Below are positions 33,717-64,000 of a DNA stretch of 64,000 nucleotides, piece by piece. Source of the stretch: a virus (taxonomy: Duplodnaviria > Heunggongvirae > Uroviricota > Caudoviricetes); IMG/VR virus record IMGVR_UViG_3300043399_000676; one strand, given 5' to 3'. How positions within the stretch are numbered: the first letter of the stretch is position 1; every line of letters starts with the position of its first letter. The notes beneath the pieces are model-generated. The model was not told the origin of the DNA. It did no database searches and saw nothing but the letters and a program-made list of their open reading frames with translations. Position numbers and translations under genes: made by a program.

Positions 33717-33940
33717 TTTTCCCTCAGTTGCTTAGATATTACGGAAAGCAAAGTTTCTAAATTGGACAACGCCTTTTTATCGATCATGAGGGACAGCTTG
33801 TTTTGCAATCCTTCGGGATCTTTTGCGTCTTCCCATTGGGTGTGTATCTTAAGACACACGGCATCTTTAGGATGCAGAGGCTTTAACACCTCTGCATACA
33901 CTCGATATCCGCTTGTTTCACTCAGCAGAATCATGTTCAT
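33713..33940 (-). CDS. hypothetical protein
   Basis: Coupled to the DUF2828 gene. Confidence 0.6.
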   Translation of the reverse strand: MNMILLSETSGYRVYAEVLKPLHPKDAVCLKIHTQWEDAKDPEGLQNKLSLMIDKKALSNLETLLSVISKQLREK

Positions 33941-35355
33941 ACATCATACCTTTCGATCATGACAGTTTTAAGCATAATATTTTCTGGGGTAAAATCGTCC
34001 AGATCATTCGCAAGCACTGCACGAACGATTGCAGGAGAAAACCCAGACACCAAAGCAACTCCTTTTTCGTTGCTCTTTACAGGAACGTTATCCGATGCAT
34101 TCAAATTCCAAAACACAACCTTCGGCACATCGTATCCTGCTTCAGCATACAGCCGTTTTACGGATTCTAGTGCAGAATCATCAAACTTAGCACATTGGTC
34201 AAACTGCATGTCCGAAAGAATCAACAGAATATCAGGCATTTCATCTTGAGGAACTTTGCCTTTCTTCGCCACATTCAAGATGTTTTGAAAACACTTGATA
34301 ACATCCGTGTTCATTCCCCAAGACGAGGTGTTCATTTGTTGAGCCTTTTGAACAATCGTGCCTTTGAGATTTTCTAGAGTCGGCGAGCCCGAGAAAGTCG
34401 CAAAGATGTCCTTAAAAGCACCTGTGTTCTTGTCCGACAGATACAGCCCCAACGAAACTGCCACTTCAAGGCAAGTCAACTTGCTCTTGGAGCTGTAACC
34501 ACCTGCCGGGCAGGTCATAGAACCAGAGACATCTACCATTGGTAGGATGTTCGCGTCACCTACGAAGTTTTCCAAAGCTTCCCATTGTTTTTCAACAAGT
34601 GAAGTTTCAGTTTTGTCGTAGCTGACATAACGAGTAATCATACCCTTCAGGACATCGTAGGGGAATACCGCACCTGCATTGACCTTAACGTCAACATCAC
34701 CGTTTACCAAAGCCTGCACATATTCCGCATACTTGGTAGTATTGCGGTTAAATGCTTTCTTGTAACGTGCAGCAGCCACAGAAGGCACATGGCTAAAGTT
34801 GATGTTGTCCCAGTCCTTCGCACACATTTGCTGCTCGACAACCTTGGTCAGATTGACCAGCGTCTTGCGATACTGCTTAGGAGACAGTCCAAGAAATTTG
34901 CGAAGTTCGACCGCAACCTTTCCTTGCCGAGGCATCCATTTTGCACAAAGACCATTTTCAGCCTTGAGTGCATTACCTATGAACGCAAATGCTGCATTCT
35001 TTAGAACAGGATCGGTAAAGATCAGCAGGTCGTCCCATCGCCCCAATTCAGGAACTTTGGCGATAAGTTTCAACGCACTATCGGGATCATTCTTTTCCAA
35101 AAAGATTAGAACGTCACGAAAAATCTGGCGTTCACCTGCGCCGCCACGCGCATCTCGCGCCCATTGCACAATTCTAAGCGCAAGGTCTTTGCTTTCAACC
35201 ATTGCTGCTACGAAGTCAGGAACAATGTCCTTTCCTCGTGAAGCGCCAATTTTATAGAACAGGTCCACACAGGCGTTAGTTGTGGATTTACGAGCCTTCA
35301 TACCATTTGCGGTACGAGCTTCTTGATTTGCTACTGCGTTTGCAAAAGAGTTCAT
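33937..35355 (-). CDS. DUF2828-family protein (TROVE/Ro60-like helical domain plus vWA)
   Basis: ARDARGGAGERQ, GRWDDL and AKWMPR motifs; MIDAS DVSGSM; ILSDMQFD; VFWNL. Confidence 0.85.
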   Translation of the reverse strand: MNSFANAVANQEARTANGMKARKSTTNACVDLFYKIGASRGKDIVPDFVAAMVESKDLALRIVQWARDARGGAGERQIFRDVLIFLEKNDPDSALKLIAKVPELGRWDDLLIFTDPVLKNAAFAFIGNALKAENGLCAKWMPRQGKVAVELRKFLGLSPKQYRKTLVNLTKVVEQQMCAKDWDNINFSHVPSVAAARYKKAFNRNTTKYAEYVQALVNGDVDVKVNAGAVFPYDVLKGMITRYVSYDKTETSLVEKQWEALENFVGDANILPMVDVSGSMTCPAGGYSSKSKLTCLEVAVSLGLYLSDKNTGAFKDIFATFSGSPTLENLKGTIVQKAQQMNTSSWGMNTDVIKCFQNILNVAKKGKVPQDEMPDILLILSDMQFDQCAKFDDSALESVKRLYAEAGYDVPKVVFWNLNASDNVPVKSNEKGVALVSGFSPAIVRAVLANDLDDFTPENIMLKTVMIERYDV

Positions 35356-52667: not shown

Positions 52668-54116
52668 TTATTTTTCAATGATTACTACTGAGTGCCCCCA
52701 CAGCATCTTAATATACTCCAGTACTGTTGCTTTGCTCTTATGTAACTTAGCATTGTTTACTGGAGTATATTTCAGTCTTAGCTCTCTGCTACCTTTAAGG
52801 TCTGCATCAAACACCTGAATGTTTGGTTGATAAGCTGATAGGCTATACTGGCTACTCAATGTCTGTCTGATTCTGTCATAGTACCTGTTATCTTGAATGC
52901 CAGTTACTTCGACGTACTCATCATCTTCATTGTTAGTAATTTCAAACAGTTTCCATTTACGCATTATGGTTGGACTGAGGAACTGTTGAATAAAACTTTC
53001 GTCACGATAGTTTTCTACTGCATACAAACATTCATCAAGCCAGTTCTTTCCAACTAGGTGAGGGAAGTATTCTTCGTCTTCAGCAGTAGGAAACTCACAA
53101 ATTCTGCGAATGTCACTAAACATATCGAACCCAAGTGCATATGGATTATATCCATTGTAATACTTGTGATCATATGGCAACTGAGTCAGTACACCTGAGT
53201 GGCTGTGTATAAATTCTAGATAACTACCATCACTAATAAGACCTTTTTCCCAAAGTCTATTCATGATGTAATAGTGAGTGAAGCTAGCCCAACCCTCGTT
53301 CATCACTTTAGTCTGACGTTGTGGGTAGAAGTATTGACTAATCTTACGAACAATACGAACGATTTCACGTTGCCAAGACTCAAGAATAGGACTATGTTTC
53401 TCTATGAAGTACATAATGTTTTCTTGCGGTTCTTCAGGAAACTGCTTTGATACCCTAGACTCTTGTGTTTTCTTTTTAGGGAGTGTACTCCAAAGTTCGT
53501 TAGCCTGTTGCTGCACTAACTCTTCTCTTTGTTTTTGACGTTCCTCTTCTTTTTCTTTGCTTAACTTTGAGGGTCTTTTGTACTTGTCGATGCCATAATC
53601 CATGATAGCATGGCAAGCATCCAATGTATTTTCTACAGCTTCGTACCCATATTTCTCTTCGCACTTTGCAATGTAGTTCTTGGCAAAGTTCATGTAGTCA
53701 ACGATGCCTTCTGCGTCAGTCCATTGCTTGAACAGGTAATTGTTCTTAAAGAAATGATTATGCCCATATGCAGCGTGAGCAATTACTAATGCCTGCATCG
53801 TCATCGAATTTTCTTCCATCAGATAACTGATACACGGAGAAGAGTTAATTACGATTTCATACGCTAGTCCTTGATATCCTTTACGATAACTGTATTGCTG
53901 TTGTATGAAGTGTTTACCAAAGCTCCAATGATTGTACATAAGTGGAAGACCATGTGAAGCATACGCTTCTAACATTTGATCCGATCCTATGATTTCAATC
54001 TGATTGGGATACGTGTTTAGTTTCAATTCATCGAACGCGATTTCTGCAATAGCTTCATCTGCTATTTTTAGACGCTCAAACGTCCAATCATTACCTTCCC
54101 ATAGTAGCTTTGACAT
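52668..54116 (-). CDS. SpoVR family protein (YcgB-like)
   Basis: YNHWSFGK, LAYEIVINS, AHAAYGHNHFFKNN and QTKVMNEGWASF motifs. Confidence 0.92.
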   Translation of the reverse strand: MSKLLWEGNDWTFERLKIADEAIAEIAFDELKLNTYPNQIEIIGSDQMLEAYASHGLPLMYNHWSFGKHFIQQQYSYRKGYQGLAYEIVINSSPCISYLMEENSMTMQALVIAHAAYGHNHFFKNNYLFKQWTDAEGIVDYMNFAKNYIAKCEEKYGYEAVENTLDACHAIMDYGIDKYKRPSKLSKEKEEERQKQREELVQQQANELWSTLPKKKTQESRVSKQFPEEPQENIMYFIEKHSPILESWQREIVRIVRKISQYFYPQRQTKVMNEGWASFTHYYIMNRLWEKGLISDGSYLEFIHSHSGVLTQLPYDHKYYNGYNPYALGFDMFSDIRRICEFPTAEDEEYFPHLVGKNWLDECLYAVENYRDESFIQQFLSPTIMRKWKLFEITNNEDDEYVEVTGIQDNRYYDRIRQTLSSQYSLSAYQPNIQVFDADLKGSRELRLKYTPVNNAKLHKSKATVLEYIKMLWGHSVVIIEK

Positions 54117-54127
54117 AACAATTCCTT

Positions 54128-54838
54128 TTAGGGTATTATTGGTTTACCGCTGATTTTACTAACCGCGATTAGGTGCCCACTACCAGTAACATATACACCA
54201 GTTTTTCTAGTAGCGAGATATTGATCTCTAGTATCAACTGTAGCAGCTTTGGCTATTCTTCCTGCCTTATAAGGATAAGATCCCCAATTCTTAGGCCACA
54301 TTAACTGCTCACCTGACTTTAAAAAGTTAGCTAGGTTTTCTTCTGTAGCCGACTGTTTGCTCATTGCAACGAAGTCATATTTCCCCTCACTAGCATTAGA
54401 CAAAAATTCTGTAAGGGCATTGGAAGTAAATCCTATGTTCTGGAACGAATTGTCCTTAGCAGTCTTTAATAAACGATTGAATATTGAATCATTTGGGTCG
54501 ACTCCAACTCGTTGAACTCTATTATTTTCATCGACGTTAGAAAACAAAACATATAACCACTTGTAATCATTTGGGTCTATGTCATTAGCTACCTGATCAT
54601 CCCAGCTTCCTTTATAATTGTCTATTTGACCTTTAGTTAATGGAGCGTCTGTACCGTTGCCTTCATACCAAGCACCGTATTTTTTGGCTATCATTTGAAC
54701 ACGTTGAAGAGTTTCAGGAGATAATTGTAATGGTTTCCCGTGCGCCTGTCCTACTACTACCGCGTTATCATTTAGAAATATTGCACCTATGCTAGATGAT
54801 GCGTTTTCAAAAAGAGGTAATATCTCACTTATCTTCAT
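54128..54838 (-). CDS. hypothetical protein with virion-type N-terminus
   Basis: MKISEILPLFE; ends GVYVTGSGHL. Confidence 0.65.
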   Translation of the reverse strand: MKISEILPLFENASSSIGAIFLNDNAVVVGQAHGKPLQLSPETLQRVQMIAKKYGAWYEGNGTDAPLTKGQIDNYKGSWDDQVANDIDPNDYKWLYVLFSNVDENNRVQRVGVDPNDSIFNRLLKTAKDNSFQNIGFTSNALTEFLSNASEGKYDFVAMSKQSATEENLANFLKSGEQLMWPKNWGSYPYKAGRIAKAATVDTRDQYLATRKTGVYVTGSGHLIAVSKISGKPIIP

Positions 54839-54840
54839 GC

Positions 54841-56097
54841 TTACCTCGCTTCTTGTTTAGCAAACAACTCTCTGAACACTAGCCAAATGTCTTTCACTTC
54901 AGTGACTGTTCGCATGGCCAAATGTGAGTATTTTTCTCGTAATGGATCATATGTATCCCATAGTTCAGTGTTTAGGCTGTTTGCGTAATACAAGTTCTCT
55001 ATTTCGACGTAGGCAAAATACTGAACTAAGGGCAATAACTTTTCAAGTGCAATCACTGTGTCTTCGCCGTCATTGGAAAAGTTGTCCCCATCAGATGCCT
55101 GACTGACAAAAATATTCCAGTCATCGACGTTATATCGTTCTTTGATAATTTCCAAAGCTAAGTTTAGTCCAGAACTAACAACAGTTCCGCCGCTTTCTCT
55201 ACTATGGAAGAAATCTTCTTCATCTACTTCTTTAGCAGACTCATGGTGTCGAATAAAGATTACATCTACCTTTTCATACTTTCTTCTTAGGAACATGTGC
55301 AAGAAAAAGAAGAAACGCTTGGCTAAATCTTTTTCTCTCTGTCCCATACTACCAGATACGTCCATGATACAAATCATGACTGCTTTGGTAATTGGCTGCG
55401 GGGTAGGAGTGAAGTTTCTGTATCTTACATCAAATGGATCTAGCCAGGGAATAGCACGTTGCTTTCTCTTTAGCTCTTCAAGTCGTAGCAAGAGTTCCTT
55501 TGCTTTATACTCGTTGCATGTCTTAAGCTGTTCTTCAATTTCAAGAATTTCTTCATTCTTAGGACGCTTGAGTCCTATTCTTCTTCCTAAGCTATTCTTA
55601 AGACTTCGTACAACATCTAACTGACTTGGATTGCCTACATTAGTAAAGCCCGCTCTCTTAGGCTTTACCTTTGTAATGTCTTTCATTTGTTTTTTAACTA
55701 GATCAGGTAACTCTAAGTCTTCGAAGATGAAGTCAAGGTACTCATCTGGATTAAGTACAAACTCAAAGTCATCTTCTCCTTCACCTAGTCCACCCTTTGA
55801 TCCTCCGCCACCTTCTTCATCCTCAGGCTTTTTTTGCCTGTCGCCGACAACGTGTTCTTTGTTGCCGGGTAGCACATACTTCTTATCACCTGTCTTTGAG
55901 TTAATACCGAACGATGGTTCGCCAATACCTTTGACCTTAACTTTTACCTTTCCGTTTTCGATATCAGCAATGTTTCCATTGTCTATTGATTCTTTTACCG
56001 CTTCCTTTATCTGTGCCTTACTTCGCTTGATAAACTTTTGACGATTCTTAATCGTCTTATCTTTTGGATTCAGTCTTCGGTCAATGATATTAGCCAT
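54841..56097 (-). CDS. YeaH/YhbH family vWA protein (DUF444)
   Basis: IIDRRLN, MDVSGSM, ESGGTVVSS and SDGDN motifs. Confidence 0.92.
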   Translation of the reverse strand: MANIIDRRLNPKDKTIKNRQKFIKRSKAQIKEAVKESIDNGNIADIENGKVKVKVKGIGEPSFGINSKTGDKKYVLPGNKEHVVGDRQKKPEDEEGGGGSKGGLGEGEDDFEFVLNPDEYLDFIFEDLELPDLVKKQMKDITKVKPKRAGFTNVGNPSQLDVVRSLKNSLGRRIGLKRPKNEEILEIEEQLKTCNEYKAKELLLRLEELKRKQRAIPWLDPFDVRYRNFTPTPQPITKAVMICIMDVSGSMGQREKDLAKRFFFFLHMFLRRKYEKVDVIFIRHHESAKEVDEEDFFHSRESGGTVVSSGLNLALEIIKERYNVDDWNIFVSQASDGDNFSNDGEDTVIALEKLLPLVQYFAYVEIENLYYANSLNTELWDTYDPLREKYSHLAMRTVTEVKDIWLVFRELFAKQEAR

Positions 56098-56108
56098 CTA
56101 GCTTTCCT

Positions 56109-58055
56109 TTAAGAACTCTTACGAACTCTCTGATACCAGTCACACAAACGTCTTACTTGTCTTTCGGTGTATCCTAGACCAATCATTCTGGTCACAAAGT
56201 CGTTGTGCTTCTTCTCAAGTTCTTTATCCTTCTTGCTATCAAAACTGATGACTGGTAGAAGGTCTTCTACTTGACTAAACATTCTCTTTTCAATAACGTC
56301 ACGAAGAACTGAGTAGCTAGTCCAAGCAGGATTCTTTCCACCGTTCTCGGGTTTAGCTCTTGCTCTTAGGCAGAAGTTGACTACTTCGTTTCTAAAATCT
56401 TTTGGATTAGAAATCCCTGCAGGCTTCTCGATCTTCTCAAGCTCTGAGTTCAGCAAAGCCCTATCCATCATTAGTCCAGTATCTGGATCTTTGAATTCAA
56501 TGTTCTGAATCCATGCATCAGCAAAATCTACATAGCGATCAAACAAGTTTTGCCCATAGTCACTATATGATTCTAGATATGCACGTTGAATAGAATTACC
56601 TAGAAACTCTGCATATCTAGTAGACAACTCACTCTTAATAAAATCAAGATACTTTTGTTCACGATCTGATCCAAACTGTTCACGCTTAATTGCGTTCTCA
56701 AGTACAAACATTAGATGTACGGGGTCTGCTGCGATTTCTTCTGGAGTGAAGTTAAAGGTCTGACTTAGAATCTTGTAAGCAAATCGAGTTGAAATGCCAT
56801 CCATACCCTCATCTACACCTGCAACATCGTGATATTCCTGAATAGACTTTGCTTTAGGATCACTGTCACGAATGTTTTCTCCATTGTAGACTCGCATCTT
56901 ACTAAAGAGGGTGCTATTTTCATGTTCACGAAGTCTAGTCAATACACTAAACTGTGCTAGCATTTCGACTGTCTGAGGAGCACAAGGTGCTGCACCTAGG
57001 CCCGAACTCTTGATCATTTTTTCGTAAATCTTAACTTCTTCGTCAACACGCAAGCAATACGGTACCTTGACAACGCATATCCTGTCAAGAAACGCTTCGT
57101 TGTTTTTGTTGTTTCTAAAGGTTTGCCATTCACTTTCGTTAGAGTGGGCAAGAACAATTCCTTGAAACGGTATAGCAGAGATTGCTTCTGTACCGACATA
57201 GTTTCCCTCCTGTGTGGCTGTAAGTAGAGGATGTAGCACTTTGATAGGAGCCTTAAACATCTCTACGAATTCAAGTAGGCCTTGATTAGCTCTGTTCAAT
57301 CCACCGCTATAGCTATAGGCATCAGTATCATTTTGGCTGTATTGTTCTAGTTTACGAATATCAACCTTACCAACTAGGGTACTGATGTCTTGGTTGTTTT
57401 CATCACCAGGCTCAGTCTTCATGACTGCAATTTGCTCTAGTTTACTAGGCATTAACTTAACTACTCGGAACTTAGTGATGTCACCATTGAATTCTTTTAG
57501 CCTCTTCATAGCCCACGGACTCATGATGCTATTGAGATAGCGTCCTTCTATTCCATATTGTTCAAACAAATGTTCTCTGAACTGTGGTACTGAAGAGAAC
57601 AGCCCTAGTGGACTTTCGAATACAGGACTAATCTCACCTGTTTCAGTTGCTAGTGCATAGATAGGGTTGAGCTCCATCAACTCCTTAAGGCGTTCAGCAA
57701 GTGATGACTTACCGCCACCAACTGGTCCTAGTAGGTATAGAATTTGTTTACGTTCTTCTAGTCCTTGTGCTGCATGTCTGAAGTACCCTACAATACGTTC
57801 GATTGCATCTTCCATACCATAGAACTCTTTGAATGCTGGGTACATTCTTACTGTACGATTAGTGAAGATTCTGCTTAGACGAGAATCTTTGCTAGTGTCC
57901 ACTAGCTCTGGCTCACCAATCGCTGCAATCATTCGTTCTGCGGCTGTGGCGTAAGCCATCTTGTCACTTTTGCATAGGTCAAGATACTCATCTATGGTCA
58001 TAGACTTGTATGCGGTCTTTTCAAAATTACTTTTGAATAAATTGGATATTGACAT
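56109..58055 (-). CDS. prkA: PrkA/YeaG family serine kinase/AAA ATPase
   Basis: LLGPVGGGKSSL, EPGDENNQDISTLVG and HPLLTATQEGNY motifs. Confidence 0.93.
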   Translation of the reverse strand: MSISNLFKSNFEKTAYKSMTIDEYLDLCKSDKMAYATAAERMIAAIGEPELVDTSKDSRLSRIFTNRTVRMYPAFKEFYGMEDAIERIVGYFRHAAQGLEERKQILYLLGPVGGGKSSLAERLKELMELNPIYALATETGEISPVFESPLGLFSSVPQFREHLFEQYGIEGRYLNSIMSPWAMKRLKEFNGDITKFRVVKLMPSKLEQIAVMKTEPGDENNQDISTLVGKVDIRKLEQYSQNDTDAYSYSGGLNRANQGLLEFVEMFKAPIKVLHPLLTATQEGNYVGTEAISAIPFQGIVLAHSNESEWQTFRNNKNNEAFLDRICVVKVPYCLRVDEEVKIYEKMIKSSGLGAAPCAPQTVEMLAQFSVLTRLREHENSTLFSKMRVYNGENIRDSDPKAKSIQEYHDVAGVDEGMDGISTRFAYKILSQTFNFTPEEIAADPVHLMFVLENAIKREQFGSDREQKYLDFIKSELSTRYAEFLGNSIQRAYLESYSDYGQNLFDRYVDFADAWIQNIEFKDPDTGLMMDRALLNSELEKIEKPAGISNPKDFRNEVVNFCLRARAKPENGGKNPAWTSYSVLRDVIEKRMFSQVEDLLPVISFDSKKDKELEKKHNDFVTRMIGLGYTERQVRRLCDWYQRVRKSS

Positions 58056-58091
58056 GGATACTCCTAATATGTTTTATTTAGTTTACTGCGC

Positions 58092-58877
58092 TCAGTTGAT
58101 GTTTAAAACTAGGCATTTTGCCGCACCACCAGATTTTATGAATTCGCTCAATTCAAACTCATGCACGGTGTATCCTACAGAACGCAATTGATTTGCTACG
58201 GTGGTATTATTGGGAATAAACAAGTGTTCACCTATCCCTACGCAGTTACACCCGAATCTTAGTGCATCGCCTGTAGATACGGTTATACTATCTGAAAAAG
58301 ACCTGTAAATCAAGTCCTGACTACTCTTTGAGAACGCATTTGGGTACCACATTAATCCACCATTTGGCAGTGGACAAAAACAAGTATCCAAGTGATACCA
58401 CCTTGGATCAACTAATTCAAGTACATTGATGTGCTTTCTTAGAATATGTTCTAATTCGTAAGACACTAATCGATTAGTTCTAAACCCAGAACCTAACCAA
58501 TGCCTTCCTTTTGAGTCAACGATATGATCACCTTCTCCCTCATATGGCAAGGCAGGTTGGATCACGTTAAATCCATTGTTTTGAAACCATTCACGAAAAA
58601 TAGGCTCTTCGCCTGTTCGTTCTAAATTTGTAAACCTAGAAAGAACCACTACATCACCATGCACTGAACCCGCGTTTGCAGTAAAAACCAAATCAGGAAG
58701 TCCAGGTACACCTTTGACTAATTTCACAATAGCAATTTTACTCAATGCTTCAAACAAAGCGAACCATCCTGATTGAGCCAAATGATTGTCCACCTTTCCT
58801 ATATGAGATGTCATCCAAGGATTAATATCATATGAAACTTCAAAATGTTTTGGATCACACATTAAAACTGTTTTCAT
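58092..58877 (-). CDS. amidinotransferase / dimethylargininase family protein
   Basis: YDINPWM, LPDLVFTANAG, EGEGD, YHLDTCFCPL and KSGGAAKCL motifs. Confidence 0.88.
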   Translation of the reverse strand: MKTVLMCDPKHFEVSYDINPWMTSHIGKVDNHLAQSGWFALFEALSKIAIVKLVKGVPGLPDLVFTANAGSVHGDVVVLSRFTNLERTGEEPIFREWFQNNGFNVIQPALPYEGEGDHIVDSKGRHWLGSGFRTNRLVSYELEHILRKHINVLELVDPRWYHLDTCFCPLPNGGLMWYPNAFSKSSQDLIYRSFSDSITVSTGDALRFGCNCVGIGEHLFIPNNTTVANQLRSVGYTVHEFELSEFIKSGGAAKCLVLNIN

Positions 58878-58929
58878 TAACTCACCTTAAAATACAGCGG
58901 TATTTAGACATCAACGTTTTTAATGAACA

Positions 58930-59160
58930 TTATTTTCGTCGTTTACGCCAAGTGTACGCGATCCCATCTGGACATAATCCATTCTCCACAGAATCAACAC
59001 CAGTCTTTCCTATTTGATTAGGGTTCTCGCTTACCATTGTTACGAAACTCATTCCTCTCTTACGAAAAGTTTCTGTTACTGAAAGTGCATCACTTAACAC
59101 ATCACAATCCCAATTATAGCACTTATTATCAATTGGATCAGTGTAATAAACCTTATACAT
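58930..59160 (-). CDS. hypothetical protein
   Basis: 76 aa after a TAAATA motif. Confidence 0.65.
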   Translation of the reverse strand: MYKVYYTDPIDNKCYNWDCDVLSDALSVTETFRKRGMSFVTMVSENPNQIGKTGVDSVENGLCPDGIAYTWRKRRK

Positions 59161-59172
59161 ATTTTATTTAGT

Positions 59173-59248
59173 TGGCGCGCCTCGAGGGAGTCGAACCCCC
59201 ACAAACTGGTTTCGAAGACCAGGACTCTATCCATTAAGCTAGAGGCGC
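59173..59248 (-). tRNA. tRNA-Arg(TCG)
   Basis: Loop CT-TCG-AA, GCCA end. Confidence 0.88.
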
Positions 59249-59250
59249 AA

Positions 59251-59436
59251 TTAAAGGACTAGCATTGCCCAGCAAATAAAGAAAATAATTACGAGAACAA
59301 TCTTCCAAACTGGAATACTAAAGTTAAACTTAACTGTTTGCTTCTGAGGAGTAAAGTTACTATTGAATACTGGATACCTCTTCTGATTACTAAATTTGAC
59401 TTGCTTAGTTTTACGACCAAGGTTGCGAGTTTTCAT
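59251..59436 (-). CDS. small protein with C-terminal TM segment
   Basis: MKTRNLGRK start, AGGA SD. Confidence 0.55.
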   Translation of the reverse strand: MKTRNLGRKTKQVKFSNQKRYPVFNSNFTPQKQTVKFNFSIPVWKIVLVIIFFICWAMLVL

Positions 59437-59463
59437 TCTATTCCTAAAGCTGAGTTGTTGGAA

Positions 59464-59606
59464 TGGTGTCAAGGTTTTCGTACTTGACACTGGGTCGAGG
59501 GATGTCCCAGACGGCAGATGCATGAACCCACCTAATATAGTATGCCACCGTAACGTCAGGGTGGTACGCATCGTCGCTCTTTGGCGGCTCCTTCCTCGGT
59601 TTTGTT
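59464..59606 (-). ncRNA. putative CCA-ended structured ncRNA
   Basis: GC-rich hairpins; ends GTGTCAAG-TACGAAAAC-CTTGACACCA. Confidence 0.5.
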
Positions 59607-59697
59607 ACCATATTGAAACACACTAGGCGCACACACAGCGACTACAACTGCACCACCAGCTTGAGTCCTCATAGTGTTAAGTGTGCTTCAATATGGT
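59607..59697 (-). repeat. ACCATATT hairpin element 1
   Basis: ACCATATTGAAGCACACT...AGTGTGTTTCAATATGGT. Confidence 0.85.
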
Positions 59698-59816
59698 AGT
59701 TGGTGCTGATCTCCAACTTGATTGCACTGCTACGTCCTGTTTCCTGACGCTACCCTAAACGATGGTCTGGGCCTGCAATCCGCATAACCAGCTACTGCGT
59801 ATCAGCCTACGCATTT
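59694..59816 (-). ncRNA. putative CCA-ended kissing-loop ncRNA
   Basis: TGCGTA-GGCTGA-TACGCA ... GTTGG-AGATCAGCA-CCAAC-TACCA. Confidence 0.6.
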
Positions 59817-59897
59817 ACCATATTGAAACATATTCTGTCGCCGTTTTCGCATACGCTGGTAACGACCAAGACCTCAAAGAATATGTTTCAATATGGT
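59817..59897 (-). repeat. ACCATATT hairpin element 2
   Basis: 20-bp perfect inverted repeat ACCATATTGAAACATATTCT. Confidence 0.85.
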
Positions 59898-60026
59898 GCC
59901 AGTCTTTCCTGGCTGTCATCTAAGTTTCTTTTTGATACTATTGCCTGCCCACGGATTTAGCTAGCTTACCGTGCTGCTCATACTGGACGCAACTTAGAGA
60001 AGAGACCGCTGCTCTTACTGGCTTTC
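59894..60026 (-). ncRNA. putative CCA-ended structured ncRNA
   Basis: CTAAGTT...AACTTAG stem; ends GACAGCCAGGAAAGACTGGCACCA. Confidence 0.55.
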
Positions 60027-60121
60027 ACCATATTGAAACACACTGGTACTTCCCTTCAAAGGGGCAGGAAGTTTATGGCTGTTGCCCCACTCCGATACCA
60101 ACCAATGTGTTTTAATATAGT
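60027..60121 (-). repeat. ACCATATT hairpin element 3
   Basis: ACTATATTAAAACACATTGGT...ACCAGTGTGTTTCAATATGGT. Confidence 0.8.
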
Positions 60122-60200
60122 GTCACTCTCCTGACCACTTTTAACGGAGGGGGTAGAGCCTCGAGTGACTTGTCAAAGACAGGCTTTATTCCTGGTTGCA

Positions 60201-60277
60201 ACCATATTGAAGTAGACTGTTAAGTGGCCGTTTGTTCAACGGAATTCTTTTTCGCACTCAATCTACTTTAATATGGT
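60201..60277 (-). repeat. ACCATATT hairpin element 4
   Basis: ACCATATTAAAGTAGATTG...CAGTCTACTTCAATATGGT. Confidence 0.8.
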
Positions 60278-60436
60278 AACGCCTTGTTCTTCTAACTTCT
60301 TCCTGAACTCATTCCTTGCATGAAGATACCATGCCCAGTTACCCATGAATCCATCTATGCTTGTAGGCTTATCCAAATTAGCGTAATACTCTTTAAACTG
60401 CTTTTCAAACTCGGCGAGCGTTATTGTTTTGTTCAT
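60263..60436 (-). CDS. small hypothetical protein (57 aa; not in ORF track)
   Basis: AGAGGT SD; MNKTITLAEFEKQFKEYY...; stop codon lies inside hairpin 4. Confidence 0.6.
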   Translation of the reverse strand: MNKTITLAEFEKQFKEYYANLDKPTSIDGFMGNWAWYLHARNEFRKKLEEQGVTILK

Positions 60437-60457
60437 AGATACCTCTTGTTATTAGTC

Positions 60458-60628
60458 TGGTGTCCACGAGTCTTGTTACTCTCCGTATGCATCCGGATTT
60501 CTCGCAGTACGTGGTCTAGTCATAGCCTCTGCTTATGTTCAACGACCCGCCGGTGTCATTGCACCTTATCAAGTATCGTGTATAGTTTCCGCTTCATCGA
60601 CTACCGCTGACATACAGATCAGCTTCAC
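60458..60628 (-). ncRNA. putative CCA-ended structured ncRNA
   Basis: No credible ORF, multiple hairpins, ends ...CGTGGACACCA. Confidence 0.45.
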
Positions 60629-60707
60629 ACCATATCAAAGCATACTCGGGTCACGAAGTTTCCGATTTCAAACCCCCGATTCTTACGGACATATGCTTTG
60701 ATATGAT
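60629..60707 (-). repeat. ACCATATT hairpin element 5 (at the predicted TSS)
   Basis: ATCATATCAAAGCATAT...GTATGCTTTGATATGGT. Confidence 0.75.
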
Positions 60708-60714
60708 GTCAATA

Positions 60715-60743
60715 ATTATACATATCTCTTATATGTATGTCAA
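60715..60743 (-). promoter_or_regulatory. consensus sigma70 promoter for the ncRNA operon
   Basis: TTGACA-17 nt-TATAAT on the minus strand. Confidence 0.85.
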
Positions 60744-60744
60744 G

Positions 60745-60821
60745 TGGTACTTCCTAGAAGAATCGAACTTCTGACCTCTTGCGTGTCATGCAAGCGTTCT
60801 TGACCACTGAACTAAGGAAGT
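60745..60821 (-). tRNA. tRNA-Val(GAC)
   Basis: Loop AT-GAC-AC, ACCA end. Confidence 0.85.
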
Positions 60822-60827
60822 AGAGTT

Positions 60828-60903
60828 TGGTAGGACCTGCCAGGTTCGAACTGACGACATTCTGCGTGTAGGGCAGACGCTCTACCAACTGAGCTAAGGT
60901 CCT
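60828..60903 (-). tRNA. tRNA-Val(TAC)
   Basis: Loop CC-TAC-AC (C33 variant), ACCA end. Confidence 0.85.
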
Positions 60904-60910
60904 TTATTTT

Positions 60911-61000
60911 TGGCGGAGAAGGTGAGATTCGAACTCACGGTAGAGTTTCCCCTACGCTAGTTTTCAAGACTAGAGCCATAAACCACTCGGCCACTTCTCC
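60911..61000 (-). tRNA. tRNA-Ser(TGA)
   Basis: Loop CT-TGA-AA, long variable arm. Confidence 0.9.
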
Positions 61001-61007
61001 TTATGTT

Positions 61008-61081
61008 TGGTGCCCCAGGAAGGTTACGCTCCTCCTACTCATCTTTACCAAAGATGTATTTTACTATTAAACCACAGGGGC
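61008..61081 (-). tRNA. tRNA-Thr(GGT) with non-canonical T-loop
   Basis: Loop TT-GGT-AA; T-loop AGCGTAA. Confidence 0.75.
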
Positions 61082-61100
61082 AACTCCAATAAATATTGTC

Positions 61101-61637
61101 ATGAATTACTGCAATAAACTTAACCTTGATCTTTCTCCCGTCTCTAGTACTTTCGATCTATATTCTATAAAGAAAGAACACACCGTATTAGATAAGTCAG
61201 AAATCAACCCTGAAATTCAATCATTTTTATCGGAAAGAAACATTTCCATAAGCTGGGCAGAAATTTTCTATAGAAAACCATTTGATATTGTCAATATTCA
61301 CACCGATGATCTAGGGGGAGACATTGTTAAAATCAACTGGATATACGGCGGAGAAAACAGCACAATGTTTTGGTTTGCACCAAAAGATCCTTCTATTGTA
61401 AAGATTCCATTTAAAACGGCTATAAACAGCAACTACTTGTACTACAAACGAGATGAAGTCAATCTTGTACACAAAGAACAACTACGAGGAGCTTACCTAG
61501 TTCAAGTAGGAGTCCCGCATGCAGTTATAAATTCAAAAGCAGAACGATATTGTATCAGCCTAGTTTTACAAAACCAGCATAATCAATTTTTATCTATGCG
61601 CGATGCTATCTCTATTTTTTCTGATCTGATTGTTTAA
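61101..61637 (+). CDS. hypothetical protein, cupin/2OG-Fe(II)-like
   Basis: IHTD...KINW...VGVPHAVIN...RYCIS; TAAATA promoter. Confidence 0.55.
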   Translation: MNYCNKLNLDLSPVSSTFDLYSIKKEHTVLDKSEINPEIQSFLSERNISISWAEIFYRKPFDIVNIHTDDLGGDIVKINWIYGGENSTMFWFAPKDPSIVKIPFKTAINSNYLYYKRDEVNLVHKEQLRGAYLVQVGVPHAVINSKAERYCISLVLQNQHNQFLSMRDAISIFSDLIV

Positions 61638-61713
61638 TGGTGCCCCCTTCTGGTTACGCTCCAGACTCCCATGCTCTTCAGGCATATGCTTTCACTAGAT
61701 TAGCTTAAGGGGC
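61638..61713 (-). tRNA. tRNA-Phe(GAA) with non-canonical T-loop
   Basis: Loop CT-GAA-GA; T-loop AGCGTAA. Confidence 0.75.
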
Positions 61714-62316
61714 ATTAAGTTTTTGCCAAGTTTTTTTATTTTCATGAACAGCTAGTTCACACGTTTCCTCATCATAGATTTGTTCAGGTGTTATATACCC
61801 AACACTTTCCTTAGTCATTAACCATTCTGTTAATGAGGGTGTTCCATAAGGAAAGGTCTCATCGAGTTTAGGAACACAAGGTGACTGGCAAAACTTTAAG
61901 AAGTCAGAAGTTTTATGTTTTTTGGCAATAATCACAAAGTCATCAATCATCGTGGTTTTCATTCCTCGATTGTAGAAGTATAATCCTCTTCTTTTAGGAA
62001 ATATCATATCTACTTCATCAAACAAGGAATACAAATGATCGAAATCTACTTTCCACCTAATATCAAAATCAGTATAGATACCGCCAAATTTGTCTAACAC
62101 CGAATACCTTGCTAATTGCAACTTATGAAACAAGGTGCTTTTCAAGTACAATTCTTTGATATGCGGAAAGTTCTCTAAAATATCTGAGTCTTTCCATAGA
62201 ATAAATCCATAAGAAGGATTCATTGCAATAGTGTTTCTATAGTTACCGTAAAAACTATCTGGGGTAGAATTCTCTCCTACCCAAATGTAATGAACTAAGC
62301 TGTTAAATCGTTTCAT
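61705..62316 (-). CDS. glycosyltransferase, DXD type (GT32-like)
   Basis: VHYIWVG, RYSVLDKFGGIYTDFD; start moved to MKRFN because the upstream part of the track ORF is a tRNA. Confidence 0.8.
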   Translation of the reverse strand: MKRFNSLVHYIWVGENSTPDSFYGNYRNTIAMNPSYGFILWKDSDILENFPHIKELYLKSTLFHKLQLARYSVLDKFGGIYTDFDIRWKVDFDHLYSLFDEVDMIFPKRRGLYFYNRGMKTTMIDDFVIIAKKHKTSDFLKFCQSPCVPKLDETFPYGTPSLTEWLMTKESVGYITPEQIYDEETCELAVHENKKTWQKLNAP

Positions 62317-62329
62317 GTTGTATATATGA

Positions 62330-62406
62330 TGGTAGTGACGGCGAGGTTCGAACTCGCTTCTTTCAGCCTTATGAGGACTGCGTATTTCCACTAATACTAC
62401 GTCACT
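62330..62406 (-). tRNA. tRNA-Met/Ile2(CAT)
   Basis: Loop CT-CAT-AA, ACCA end. Confidence 0.8.
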
Positions 62407-62418
62407 TTAACGTACTTG

Positions 62419-62498
62419 ACCATATTGAAGTACACTATTTTCATATCCTTTCGGTCCTGCTGATCAGTGTTTGCCAGGATAATGCACTTTAATATGGT
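62419..62498 (-). repeat. ACCATATT hairpin element 6
   Basis: ACCATATTAAAGTGCATTAT...ATAGTGTACTTCAATATGGT; starts at the ACCA of tRNA-Lys. Confidence 0.85.
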
Positions 62499-62569
62499 TG
62501 GGGCAGGGGGACTTGAACCCCCAACTTACCGGTTAAAAGCCGGTTACTCTACCATTGAGTTATACCCCA
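62495..62569 (-). tRNA. tRNA-Lys(TTT)
   Basis: Loop CT-TTT-AA. Confidence 0.9.
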
Positions 62570-62672
62570 TCATAGATCGTATTGTTGATTTACCGTGCCA
62601 ACTCTAGACCTACGATGGGATCTAGAGCGACACTACATCTTACCTCGTTTCATGTCAATCTCCTTAAAAATT

Positions 62673-62746
62673 TGGTAGCCCCGGGAGGTAACGCTCCTCC
62701 GACTCCGCGTTATCAGCACGGTGTTATACTTTTTAACTAAAGGGCC
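62673..62746 (-). tRNA. tRNA-Ile(GAT) with non-canonical T-loop
   Basis: Loop CT-GAT-AA; T-loop AGCGTTA. Confidence 0.75.
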
Positions 62747-62756
62747 AATTATAAAA

Positions 62757-62815
62757 CAGGATGCGCTTTTCTTTTTCCAATAAGAAGTAGAATTAAGTTT
62801 GCTGAATGCATCCTA
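62757..62815 (-). ncRNA. stem-CAGCAA motif copy D
   Basis: TAGGATGC-ATTCAGCAAACTTAATT...GCATCCTG. Confidence 0.7.
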
Positions 62816-62912
62816 AAAAGGGCACCGGTTACGCTTTCCGGCGCTGCTTGTACACTCAATAAATCATGAGTAGTTCACAGCCGTTGCTGTTGCGTCTAGG
62901 CAACTTTCGTTT

Positions 62913-62987
62913 TGGAGCGGGTAGTCGGGTTCGAACCGACGACCTTCTGCTTGGCAAGCAGATGCACTACCACTGTGCTATACCCGC
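62913..62987 (-). tRNA. tRNA-Gly(GCC)
   Basis: Loop TT-GCC-AA, TCCA end. Confidence 0.92.
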
Positions 62988-62994
62988 ATATTCT

Positions 62995-63078
62995 TGGTGC
63001 CCCAGGAGGGATTCGAACCCTCACGCCTCTCGGCACTGGTTTCTAAGACCAGCGTGTCTACCATTCCACCACCGGGGC
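62995..63078 (-). tRNA. tRNA-Leu(TAG)
   Basis: Loop CT-TAG-AA, variable arm. Confidence 0.92.
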
Positions 63079-63087
63079 AAAAATTCT

Positions 63088-63163
63088 TGGGGTGACTAGT
63101 CGGATTTGAACCGACATCTATCGGAATCACAATCCGAGGCTCTACCGTTGAGCTATAGCCACC
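63088..63163 (-). tRNA. tRNA-His(GTG)
   Basis: Loop TT-GTG-AT, G-1, CCCA end. Confidence 0.9.
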
Positions 63164-63170
63164 ATCGATT

Positions 63171-63281
63171 ACCATATTGAAGCACACTTGTAGGACTTGA
63201 ACCTACCGACTTTGCTCTAAGGGCAAAGCTATGCACCACCCATATCAGCGCGGCCTGCGCCTTAGTGTGCTTTAATATGGC
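63171..63281 (-). repeat. ACCATATT hairpin element 7 enclosing a tRNA-like body
   Basis: GCCATATTAAAGCACACT...GTAGGTTCAAGTCCTAC-AAGTGTGCTTCAATATGGT. Confidence 0.8.
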
Positions 63282-63353
63282 TACGGTGGAGGGACTTGAA
63301 CCCCCAACATCTGGTTTTGGAGACCAGGGTTCTGCCAATTGAACTACACCGTA
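63278..63353 (-). tRNA. tRNA-Trp(CCA)
   Basis: Loop CT-CCA-AA, GCCA end. Confidence 0.9.
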
Positions 63354-63363
63354 ATAACTTAAA

Positions 63364-63428
63364 TCACTGTCTAGGGATCGAACCTAGTCGAGTTGCGCGC
63401 CAATCTCGTACTACCAAGTACACAGTGA
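63364..63428 (-). ncRNA. minimal or degenerate tRNA-like element
   Basis: 7-bp acceptor stem, D-like arm and T-arm CTAGG-TTCGATC-CCTAG; no CCA and no proper anticodon loop. Confidence 0.55.
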
Positions 63429-63433
63429 AACTT

Positions 63434-63508
63434 TGGCAGGGGTACTAGGAATCGAACCTAGACTAACGGAATCAAAATCCGTTGTGACTACCATTACACC
63501 ATACCCCA
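63434..63508 (-). tRNA. tRNA-Gln(TTG)
   Basis: Loop TT-TTG-AT. Confidence 0.9.
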
Positions 63509-63514
63509 ACAATT

Positions 63515-63589
63515 TGGCTCCGGAGGCAGGGATCGAACCTACGACCAATTGATTAACAGTCAACTGCACTACCGCTGTGCTACTCCGGA
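63515..63589 (-). tRNA. tRNA-Asn(GTT)
   Basis: Loop CT-GTT-AA. Confidence 0.92.
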
Positions 63590-63599
63590 ATAAACAAAA

Positions 63600-63662
63600 C
63601 AGGATGCCTTTTTACGGTTTAGATTAGAAGTCTAATGTATAAAGTTTGCTGAAAGCATCCTA
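63600..63662 (-). ncRNA. stem-CAGCAA motif copy E with an Arg(TCT) anticodon-arm mimic
   Basis: TAGGATGC-TTTCAGCAAAC...TTAGA-CTTCTAA-TCTAA...GCATCCTG. Confidence 0.7.
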
Positions 63663-63666
63663 AAAC

Positions 63667-63749
63667 TGGTGTGTGTTACGGGATTCGAACCCGCACTTCA
63701 AGGTTGTTAGCCCTGCGTCGTGATGCCCTAACATTTTGACCAAACACAC
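63667..63749 (-). tRNA. atypical tRNA-like gene with AAC anticodon and expanded D-loop
   Basis: GTGTGTT acceptor stem, CAGGG-CTAACAA-CCTTG arm, canonical T-arm, ACCA end. Confidence 0.6.
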
Positions 63750-63755
63750 ATAAAC

Positions 63756-63870
63756 TGGCGCCGCTGCTAGGAATCGAACCTAGATATCTTCCTTGACATG
63801 GAATTGTAATTGCTGAACGTAATCTTGACAGATTCGCTTTTTAAGCGTCCTACCATTAGACGACAGCGGC
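63756..63870 (-). tRNA. tRNA-Asp(GTC)-like gene with a ~40-nt CAGCAA-containing insertion
   Basis: Intact acceptor, D and T arms and GCCA end; TTCC-ATGTCAA-GGAA arm; insertion follows the D-arm. Confidence 0.6.
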
Positions 63871-63876
63871 TAAAAC

Positions 63877-63953
63877 TGGTAGCGAGAGGAGGGATTCGAA
63901 CCCCCGACCTTCGGCTTATGAGACCGACGAGCTAACCACTGCTCCACTCCGCA
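63877..63953 (-). tRNA. tRNA-Met(CAT), initiator-like
   Basis: TCGGT-CTCATAA-GCCGA arm; unpaired first acceptor position. Confidence 0.85.
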
Positions 63954-63960
63954 TCAAATT

Positions 63961-64000
63961 TGGCGCCTCGTACGGGACTTGAACCCGTGGCCTTCTGCGT
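63961..64000 (-). tRNA. tRNA 3' half (truncated by the window; probably Asp)
   Basis: T-arm ACGGG-TTCAAGT-CCCGT and GCCA end; anticodon lies outside the window. Confidence 0.65.

Follow-up and report, generated by a model that had tools for sequence, protein, structure and literature searches.

Here we describe an array of small, mostly non-coding RNA modules framed by a repeated hairpin stem, which occupies positions 60743–59464 (minus strand) of a 64,000-nucleotide (nt) stretch of phage DNA (the window; Caudoviricetes, IMG/VR record IMGVR_UViG_3300043399_000676). The array begins at a promoter. Its stem is anchored in related phages on the CCA end of tRNAs and varies with the wobble of an RNA helix, and the modules that it frames form families and stand in different orders in relatives. 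The account that we favour as a whole, and hold to be probable on balance, is that of an array at the distal end of a tRNA cluster in which a repeated stem of RNase III type frames exchangeable modules, some of them possibly decoys.

Layout of the array

The array lies between tRNA-Val(gac) (60745–60821, minus strand), its immediate upstream neighbour, and tRNA-Arg(tcg) (59173–59248, minus strand) at the distal end of the tRNA cluster. As a preliminary description of this DNA had claimed, it is headed by a perfect sigma70-type promoter (60743–60715; TTGACA, a 17-nt spacer and TATAAT; 12 of 12 consensus positions), which begins 1 nt behind tRNA-Val(gac) and is the sole perfect match among 22 sites in the region 54000–64000. 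No terminator was found between tRNA-Val(gac) and the array, and from the usual promoter spacing transcription would be expected to start at ~60707–60709, at the foot of the first stem.

Behind the promoter, five 17-bp hairpins alternate with five segments. The hairpins are where they had been placed (plus-strand starts 59607, 59817, 60027, 60201 and 60629); each folds far better than shuffled sequences (z −3.6 to −7.1), and all five form when the whole 1254-nt stretch is folded. Their loops are mutually unrelated, also as described, and measure 39–55 nt between the arms as first found (40–55 nt had been given) or 41–59 nt between the 17-bp arms.

Read in the direction of transcription, with every feature on the minus strand, the array opens with stem A (60630–60706, the arms extending to 60624–60712) and enclosing the 43-nt loop A. 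It is followed by segment S1 (60458–60629; z −1.4), a structured non-coding RNA that has relatives elsewhere, is closed by a GGUGU/ACACC helix and ends in ACCA. Between S1 and stem B (60202–60276; 41-nt loop) lies an open reading frame (ORF) of 57 amino acids (aa) with a Shine-Dalgarno sequence (60436–60263), whose stop codon falls inside the left arm of stem B. Next come segment S2 (60121–60201), stem C (60028–60120; 59-nt loop), segment S3 (59897–60027), in which a conserved core motif shared with relatives is joined to a 3′ hairpin, and stem D (59818–59896; 45-nt loop). The array closes with segment S4 (59697–59817; z −2.1), a multi-helix RNA with possible loop–loop pairing, stem E (59608–59696; 55-nt loop) and segment S5 (59464–59607), which finishes in a terminal hairpin and then ACCA, with no stem after it.

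The segment ends noted earlier (ACCA, ACTA, ACCA, ACCA and ACCA from S1 to S5) are present, but the terminal CCA or CTA of S2, S3 and S4 is at the same time the first three bases of the following stem, which leaves these three without a free tail. Likewise, the ~1.25 kb that had been called almost non-coding is mostly so, but holds the 57-aa gene.

The same stem occurs three more times in the contig to which the window belongs. One copy sits on the CCA of tRNA-Trp (63172–63280, minus strand) and encloses a 75-nt tRNA-like loop with a T arm, and another sits on the CCA of tRNA-Lys (62420–62497, minus strand). The eighth stem lies outside the window and upstream of the first tRNA (G000:C1:1355-1451, locus L127); it has the same inner half, a divergent outer half and a 63-nt loop. 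All eight stems of this 137-kb contig are in or at the tRNA cluster. The loop of the tRNA-Trp copy (63189–63263, minus strand) has a D-like arm, a variable anticodon-like arm and a T arm, and belongs to a covarying family (family 9) in which the anticodon-like loop varies freely.

The shared stem and its fit to RNase III

Loci of the stem family were collected by exact-pattern scans, which gave at least 126 and at least 129 viral loci and at least 126 metagenome loci; in 185,579 prokaryote species genomes, the same pattern was found only in 6 short contigs of metagenome-assembled genomes. A further 49 loci were reached through a neighbouring 76-aa protein, and the pooled set comprises 436 loci with 622 distinct hairpins. 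Most of these loci (390 of 436) carry tRNAs, on which the stem has a fixed register: tRNA-oriented loci provide 595 distinct placements. An upstream tRNA ends no more than 30 nt away in 312 of them, and in 295 of these the stem starts exactly on that tRNA's CCA. Where a tRNA lies within 30 nt downstream, the stem ends on its first two bases in 93 of 239 placements. Runs of at least four consecutive stems with no intervening tRNA occur in 24 of the 436 loci and reach a maximum of 12; loci L330 and L350 hold tRNA-free runs of 12 and 7 stems, respectively.

Read on the tRNA strand, pairs 1–17 of 577 stems hold 786 G–U pairs against 213 A–C mismatches, an excess expected for an RNA stem. As many as 147 of the 213 A–C mismatches fall at pair 8, beside the predicted cut described below. 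Pairs 7, 8, 11, 12, 14 and 16 change on both sides, and the paired fraction is 0.98 at pair 16, 0.93 at pair 17 and 0.54 at pair 19.

Both arms of the stem are likely to form a putative RNase III site of the E. coli type, with the proviso that a consensus from E. coli may not be that of the host. In its source (PMC4357697), this consensus is described as weak and given as WNAGWGNNCWUNNN^NAWGNNCWCUNW, with a proximal box at −4 to −6 and a distal box at −11 and −12. When it was slid along 326 stems, one register fitted, with 8.26/10 and 8.84/10 per arm, and the 17 others scored 4.86 or less. The fitting register places the cut after base 7 of the left arm and 5 bases before the end of the right arm, which is the geometry of a 2-nt 3′ overhang. 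The seven stems of the window score 7–10 of 10 per arm, the tRNA-Trp copy reaching 10/10 and 10/10; among 100,000 random 17-mers, 263 scored at least 9/10 in any register or strand. Pair 10, the middle of the proximal box (−5), is A–U in 324 of 326 stems and G–C or C–G in none, a preference that is partly built in by the motif. On one side of the predicted cut the double helix has the ~11 bp or more of E. coli-type substrates, its pairing stops with the distal box, pair 8 with its frequent mismatches lies next to that cut, and the outer CWU of the consensus coincides with the CA of the upstream CCA and the next U. The inner half of the stem alone finds 448 stems (none on reversed sequence). 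The outer half diverges in 24 of them, 22 of which retain the U of the proximal box at arm position 4.

As a control, the consensus placed five T7 intergenic sites (before genes 0.3, 0.5, 1.1, 1.3 and 6.5) among its top 8 in 30 kb; we take these five to be the known RNase III sites of T7. None of 26 phage records yielded a gene for RNase III (the control was found in 8 of 14), and cutting would accordingly fall to the host enzyme.

Several points count against this assignment. The consensus is weak by its source's own word and derived from E. coli, which may not be the host; pairs 5 and 6, which lie at free consensus positions, are conserved beyond what it needs; and the conservation of pairs 1–15 is partly built into a motif-based collection, pairs 16–21 lying outside the motif. 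Production and cutting of the array RNA are predictions only.

In the processing scheme that we propose, one precursor would be transcribed from the local promoter and by read-through from the tRNAs, and host RNase III would cut each stem twice in a stagger that leaves a 2-nt 3′ overhang. The cuts would free each loop as a 63–97-nt RNA closed by ~10 bp, and a segment between two stems would be freed by two cuts. The upstream tRNA would be left with its CCA plus 4 nt for trimming, and the downstream tRNA with a 3-nt leader for RNase P. For the array, the predicted cuts are at 60700/60699 and 60635/60634 in stem A (inner RNA of 65 nt), 60270/60269 and 60207/60206 in stem B (63 nt, 60269–60207), 60114/60113 and 60033/60032 in stem C (81 nt), 59890/59889 and 59823/59822 in stem D (67 nt), and 59690/59689 and 59613/59612 in stem E (77 nt); the RNAs freed from S2, S3 and S4 would measure 93, 143 and 133 nt, respectively. 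Each right arm is complementary to the following left arm as well, so that the cuts would be the same with either pairing. We consider it quite likely, and hold it with good confidence, that RNase III, cutting in a stagger behind base 7 of the left arm and 5 bases short of the end of the right arm, would free loops, segments and tRNAs in this way. Non-tRNA cargo would then mature without a tRNA fold, and the arms would make the modules portable. The earlier suggestion that the array is processed like tRNAs has to be modified: the stems fit RNase III and not the signals of RNase P or CCA, and three of the ACCA-type ends belong to stems.

It would be a different matter if the stem stayed uncut and served as the binding handle of Y-RNA-like RNAs, with the variable top recruiting partners. 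Y RNAs share this plan of a constant stem and a variable, sometimes tRNA-like top, and a DUF2828/DUF7788 protein (PHROG 'RNA-binding protein') that could bind such a handle is encoded in the genome at 33940–35355. We regard this as very improbable, since just 3 of the 8 near-complete genomes with the stem encode the DUF2828 protein, which also occurs in one record without a stem in the tRNA stretch examined, TROVE (Ro60) is present in none of 9 records (control, 2 of 14), YrlA gave no Rfam match over the stems, and the stem takes in the upstream tRNA's CCA, which must be freed. A Ro60-like partner encoded by the phage was rejected on this failure of co-occurrence. The DUF2828 protein had no sequence match in the PDB.

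Cargo modules and their exchange

The 595 distinct loops, which are 25–165 nt long, fall into up to 343 BLAST clusters (an upper bound, as the clustering over-splits), and the 173 inter-stem segments into 104 clusters. Among the 17 loop families with at least five members, 13 show at least one pair changed on both sides (RNAalifold; kinship ignored), with invariant unpaired bases lying between the covarying pairs, and a T-loop-like motif is present in 61 of the 595 loops. Rfam returned no match at the gathering score outside the tRNAs of the window, and for the array at E ≤ 10 only sub-cut-off miRNA and snoRNA matches that reflect the hairpins. In 40 related loci chosen to cover the clusters, the matches listed comprised only tRNA, group I intron, one GOLLD RNA and one permuted tmRNA.

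The 210-bp spacing reported for three hairpins of the array is real, but is a product of chance: 2 of the 173 inter-stem spacings equal 210, both from this window. The 173 distinct segments, the window's included, span 115–303 nt end to end (5th–95th percentile), with 11 in the range 205–215, which rules out a 210-bp period as a designed unit.

Relatives were found for most modules of the array, in related phage loci (L numbers) and in contigs of sequencing runs (X numbers). S1 has a 71% identical relative between two stems in L416, which keeps two long invariant blocks, as well as copies in contigs of runs X10 and X14, and S2 has arm-bounded copies in X3, X5, X10 and X14 contigs. The core of S3 recurs in L137, L144, L350 and L039 and its 3′ hairpin in L053, and S3 is also present in an X14 contig (59887–60003). 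For S4, an 84% identical relative in L189 keeps 35 of 35 drawn pairs, five of them with both sides changed, a count that comes from two sequences and from a structure drawn with both in view. S5 is kept in an X3 contig with 4 listed substitutions, and the loop E region differs there. The whole hairpin of stem B is present in X5 and X14 contigs; loop C has 2 distinct relatives with other neighbours (L153 and L126), and loop D has 7 behind different tRNAs or segments. Loop A had no full relative among the matches listed. Judged from its sequence, the 57-aa ORF is a protein-coding cassette that sits where segments otherwise do; of the 20 substitutions listed in related contigs, 12 fall at codon position 3, and no match was found in Pfam, NCBIfam or PHROG. 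In all, S1–S5 and stems B, D and E recur in contigs sequenced in five other studies, often bounded by arms. Two runs that cover nearly the whole stretch come from one freshwater sample, a possible source of this DNA, and run X2, from the same sample, is not independent. Of 20 public runs listed as containing the sequence, none was of RNA; contigs of runs X2–X5, X7, X10 and X14 were compared with the array.

Comparison of close relatives shows modules coming and going at the arms. L301 and L300 are near-identical, except that a unit of exactly one segment and one stem (142 nt) is missing from L301, the break falling in the right arm. Behind the same tRNA-Lys, L270 and L272 carry unrelated loops in stems of 82 and 133 nt, and behind tRNA-Arg the same two loci present a 152-nt stem versus an empty site. 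In an X14 contig, stem E is followed by S1 instead of S5, and in another contig the 57-aa gene stands behind a different right arm. More broadly, 43 of the 61 loop families with at least three sequences occur behind at least two kinds of upstream unit. The relatives found through the 76-aa protein are not syntenic with the array, and strain-level turnover was therefore read from pairs among them and from metagenome contigs. Loops turn over in related phages while stems persist, as the preliminary description had proposed to check. Its broader claim, a polycistronic array of small non-tRNA RNAs, is supported at the level of comparative sequence by this turnover together with the G–U bias, the covariation and the conserved module families.

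It appears likely that modules are exchanged by short-homology recombination between arms and between flanking tRNAs. This route is favoured because no dedicated mobility enzyme was found: tyrosine recombinase/integrase, Y1 transposase and reverse transcriptase were each present in 0 of 9 records, 8 of them near-complete. Recombination between arms would be the simplest account of the turnover, as for the PeSL cassettes of T4-type phages discussed below, and the arms are likely to double as crossover points. Against this stands the fact that the reordering joints come from metagenome assemblies (the X14 contig has a depth of 3.3), in which mis-joins are possible.

Filled and empty sites, conserved inverted arms with variable tops, a fixed CCA register and arm-bounded modules could also be produced by a mobile element or cassette system (integron attC-like, REPIN-like or MITE-like) for which the arms are DNA-level sites of insertion at tRNA 3′ ends, and single-stranded DNA hairpins, too, can show a strand-biased G–T pattern. 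We give this explanation very little credence. No phage copy of the three enzymes above was found in any of the 9 records (the window's own genome being ~35% complete), the wobble bias tracks the tRNA sense strand, the eight stems of the contig are confined to the tRNA cluster, and both the fit to RNase III and the T5 parallel described below would have to be coincidence.

The layout of repeat, variable part and repeat behind a promoter also recalls a CRISPR-like array, and RNase III matures some CRISPR RNAs. The loops would in that case act by pairing with nucleic acids of the host or of phages, as antisense RNAs or as the guides that the preliminary description had allowed. This is the least probable of the explanations that we weighed, given that the loops are conserved between phages, covary internally and vary widely in length, and that their longest matches to the phage's own genome (10–12 nt) are no better than those of shuffled loops (11–12.5 nt). 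Stems D–E had no match in plasmids, and a blastn search of 50,697 records of cultured phages with the region returned only 3 matches, all short and weak. Self-targeting guides are ruled out for this genome by the shuffle-level matching. A CRISPR-like guide array would have direct repeats and unique spacers of equal length with matches in foreign DNA, whereas the array has inverted arms, unequal, conserved and covarying inserts and no matches beyond chance in these searches.

A more prosaic possibility is that the stems are processing spacers and no more, and that most loops and segments are neutral cargo or tRNA-derived sequence in decay, destroyed after cutting. Folded by themselves, the five loops of the array do not surpass shuffled sequences (z −1.3 to 0.5), and the same holds for S2, S3 and S5 (z 0.53, −0.14 and −0.58, respectively); 232 of the 343 loop clusters are singletons, with the caveat that BLAST clustering over-splits; modules are lost between near-identical strains; and the stem is dispensable, because many phage tRNA arrays are without it. 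The folding and clustering results weigh against functional cargo too, as do three others: 4 of the 17 large loop families, that of loop D included, are without a double change, segments show no extra 5′–3′ closing pairs relative to a mismatched-partner control, and there is only a mild excess of hairpins shortly 5′ of the CCA (66 of 157, versus 44 shuffled). By the second of these, the idea of segments as general acceptor-stem tRNA mimics is not supported. We nevertheless consider mere passengers unlikely, since covarying helices and invariant unpaired bases are preserved within families at different genomic positions, S1 retains its two long invariant blocks at 71% identity, a dedicated 12/12 promoter heads a tRNA-free run, and 24 of 436 loci have at least four consecutive stems, and up to 12, with no tRNA between them.

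For the cargo that the array would release, we tentatively suggest a role as folded decoys or ligands that titrate host RNA-acting or anti-phage proteins or small molecules, a role to which we give somewhat less than even weight. A minority would be tRNA mimics and many would have compact, pseudoknot-like folds, and the fast turnover would reflect conflict between host and phage. The diversity, quick turnover, internal covariation, minority tRNA mimicry and lack of guide-like matching fit conflict-driven ligands best, which is why we prefer this reading.

Genomic setting, known counterparts and significance

The window belongs to a linear virus contig of 137,127 bases with an estimated completeness of 35%, which encodes a T4-type tail sheath and a family B polymerase and carries 22 tRNA genes, all on one strand. 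A host-like gene set of PrkA (YeaG), DUF444 (YeaH) and SpoVR adjoins the tRNA cluster (52668–58055, minus strand). The phage also encodes ClpP, ClpX, ClpS, ClpA-like, Pth2 and QueD/FolE/QueE-like proteins; no host was indicated by the ClpA/ClpS/ClpP-like genes. Within the cluster, Rfam recognised four tRNA-like genes that ARAGORN missed (63670–63870, 62676–62746 and 61641–61713, minus strand), one of which holds a long insertion (63759–63870). A 60-nt element, AGGATGC..CAGCAAA..GCATCCTG, is present in two copies (63600–63660 and 62757–62813, minus strand); its middle resembles the remnant of an anticodon arm, it has relatives in many other phage tRNA arrays, and its Rfam match is below threshold only. 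Immediately 5′ of tRNA-Lys lies a conserved motif (62570–62665, minus strand) made of a Shine-Dalgarno sequence, a short ATG-started stretch and a hairpin that covaries among its six relatives.

Stable non-tRNA RNAs in the tRNA clusters of phages T4 and T5, and punctuation of transcripts by RNase III in T7 and rRNA operons, are already known. Position among same-strand tRNA genes, with tRNA-like or stem-closed ends, is a property that the array shares with these T5- and T4-type RNAs. In T5 (AY543070.1), RNAIII, RNAIV and RNA2H are annotated as 'stable RNA with unknown functions' among the tRNAs, and each has a long 5′–3′ closing stem. The stem of RNAIII (L443:3285-3390) extends from the CCA of RNAI into tRNA-His. 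Both annotated ends of RNAIII, one after base 7 and the other 5 bases before the stem end, are in the register predicted for the array stem. The T5 parallel has its weak side, as in the homologous register no more than 5 of the 10 left-arm positions of this stem agree with the consensus by hand count. Moreover, every stem in T5 has its own sequence, whereas here a single standard stem, with 8 copies in one genome, recurs in hundreds of phage contigs, encloses up to 343 loop clusters and takes part in swapping.

In T4 (AF158101.6), rnaC and rnaD (species 1 and 2) are small stable non-tRNA RNAs that, like the array, lie distally in the tRNA cluster; rnaD has a terminal ACCA, and rnaC a T-arm-like hairpin. 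Unlike the modules described here, they are not framed by the array stem, their best consensus fits (7–9/10) being internal and not at the ends, and their likeness to modules is limited to T-arm words in other loci. The T5 RNAs (RNAI-IV/1-3/2H) and T4 rnaC and rnaD gave no match to the window's 15 query modules (blastn, E ≤ 0.1).

The stems of T7 early RNA likewise fit the RNase III consensus and punctuate a polycistronic transcript, and RNase III processing stems punctuate the transcript of rRNA operons. In contrast to both, the array stem uses the tRNA CCA in its outer proximal box, is near-perfectly paired, and has conserved non-coding cargo in the enclosed loop as well as in the linker. 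The report on PeSL cassettes in the T4-type phages RB49 and phi1 (PMC2839356) describes short repeated regulatory elements between which recombination shuffles modules in variable regions. As described there, PeSLs are promoter–terminator units that move protein genes, whereas the array would consist of putative RNA-processing stems that move mostly non-coding RNAs. GOLLD RNA (RF02032) is a large structured RNA of phage tRNA clusters; no module of the window matches it, and at L181:7485-8040 GOLLD is followed by ACCA and, starting 1 nt further on, by a variant of the stem. Neither Rfam 15 nor the full-text literature within reach, which excludes most subscription papers and supplements, yielded a standard frame that is anchored on CCA and holds hundreds of exchangeable inserts; supplements of phage-RNA surveys with large motif tables could hold some of the cargo families.

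Taken together, these comparisons turn what was an oddity of T4 and T5 stable RNAs into a system with a readable grammar, in which the exact ends of every product can be predicted from one stem. This makes it possible to list, synthesise and screen hundreds of compact RNAs that are in no catalogue (up to 343 loop and 104 segment clusters in 436 loci). In E. coli, the host enzyme would be expected to cut the stem, and T5 RNAIII offers a cultured counterpart and a possible bench model there. More speculatively, and with rather more doubt than belief, large aquatic phages may keep a tradable library of RNA effectors as an anti-defence arsenal, for which an RNase III frame could be set on any tRNA 3′ end. 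Such a library would hold hundreds of aptamer-like folds, among them decoys for tRNA nucleases or RNA sensors and sponges for signalling nucleotides. If the cargo does consist of decoys, phages would counter host defence with a swappable RNA toolkit beside their proteins.

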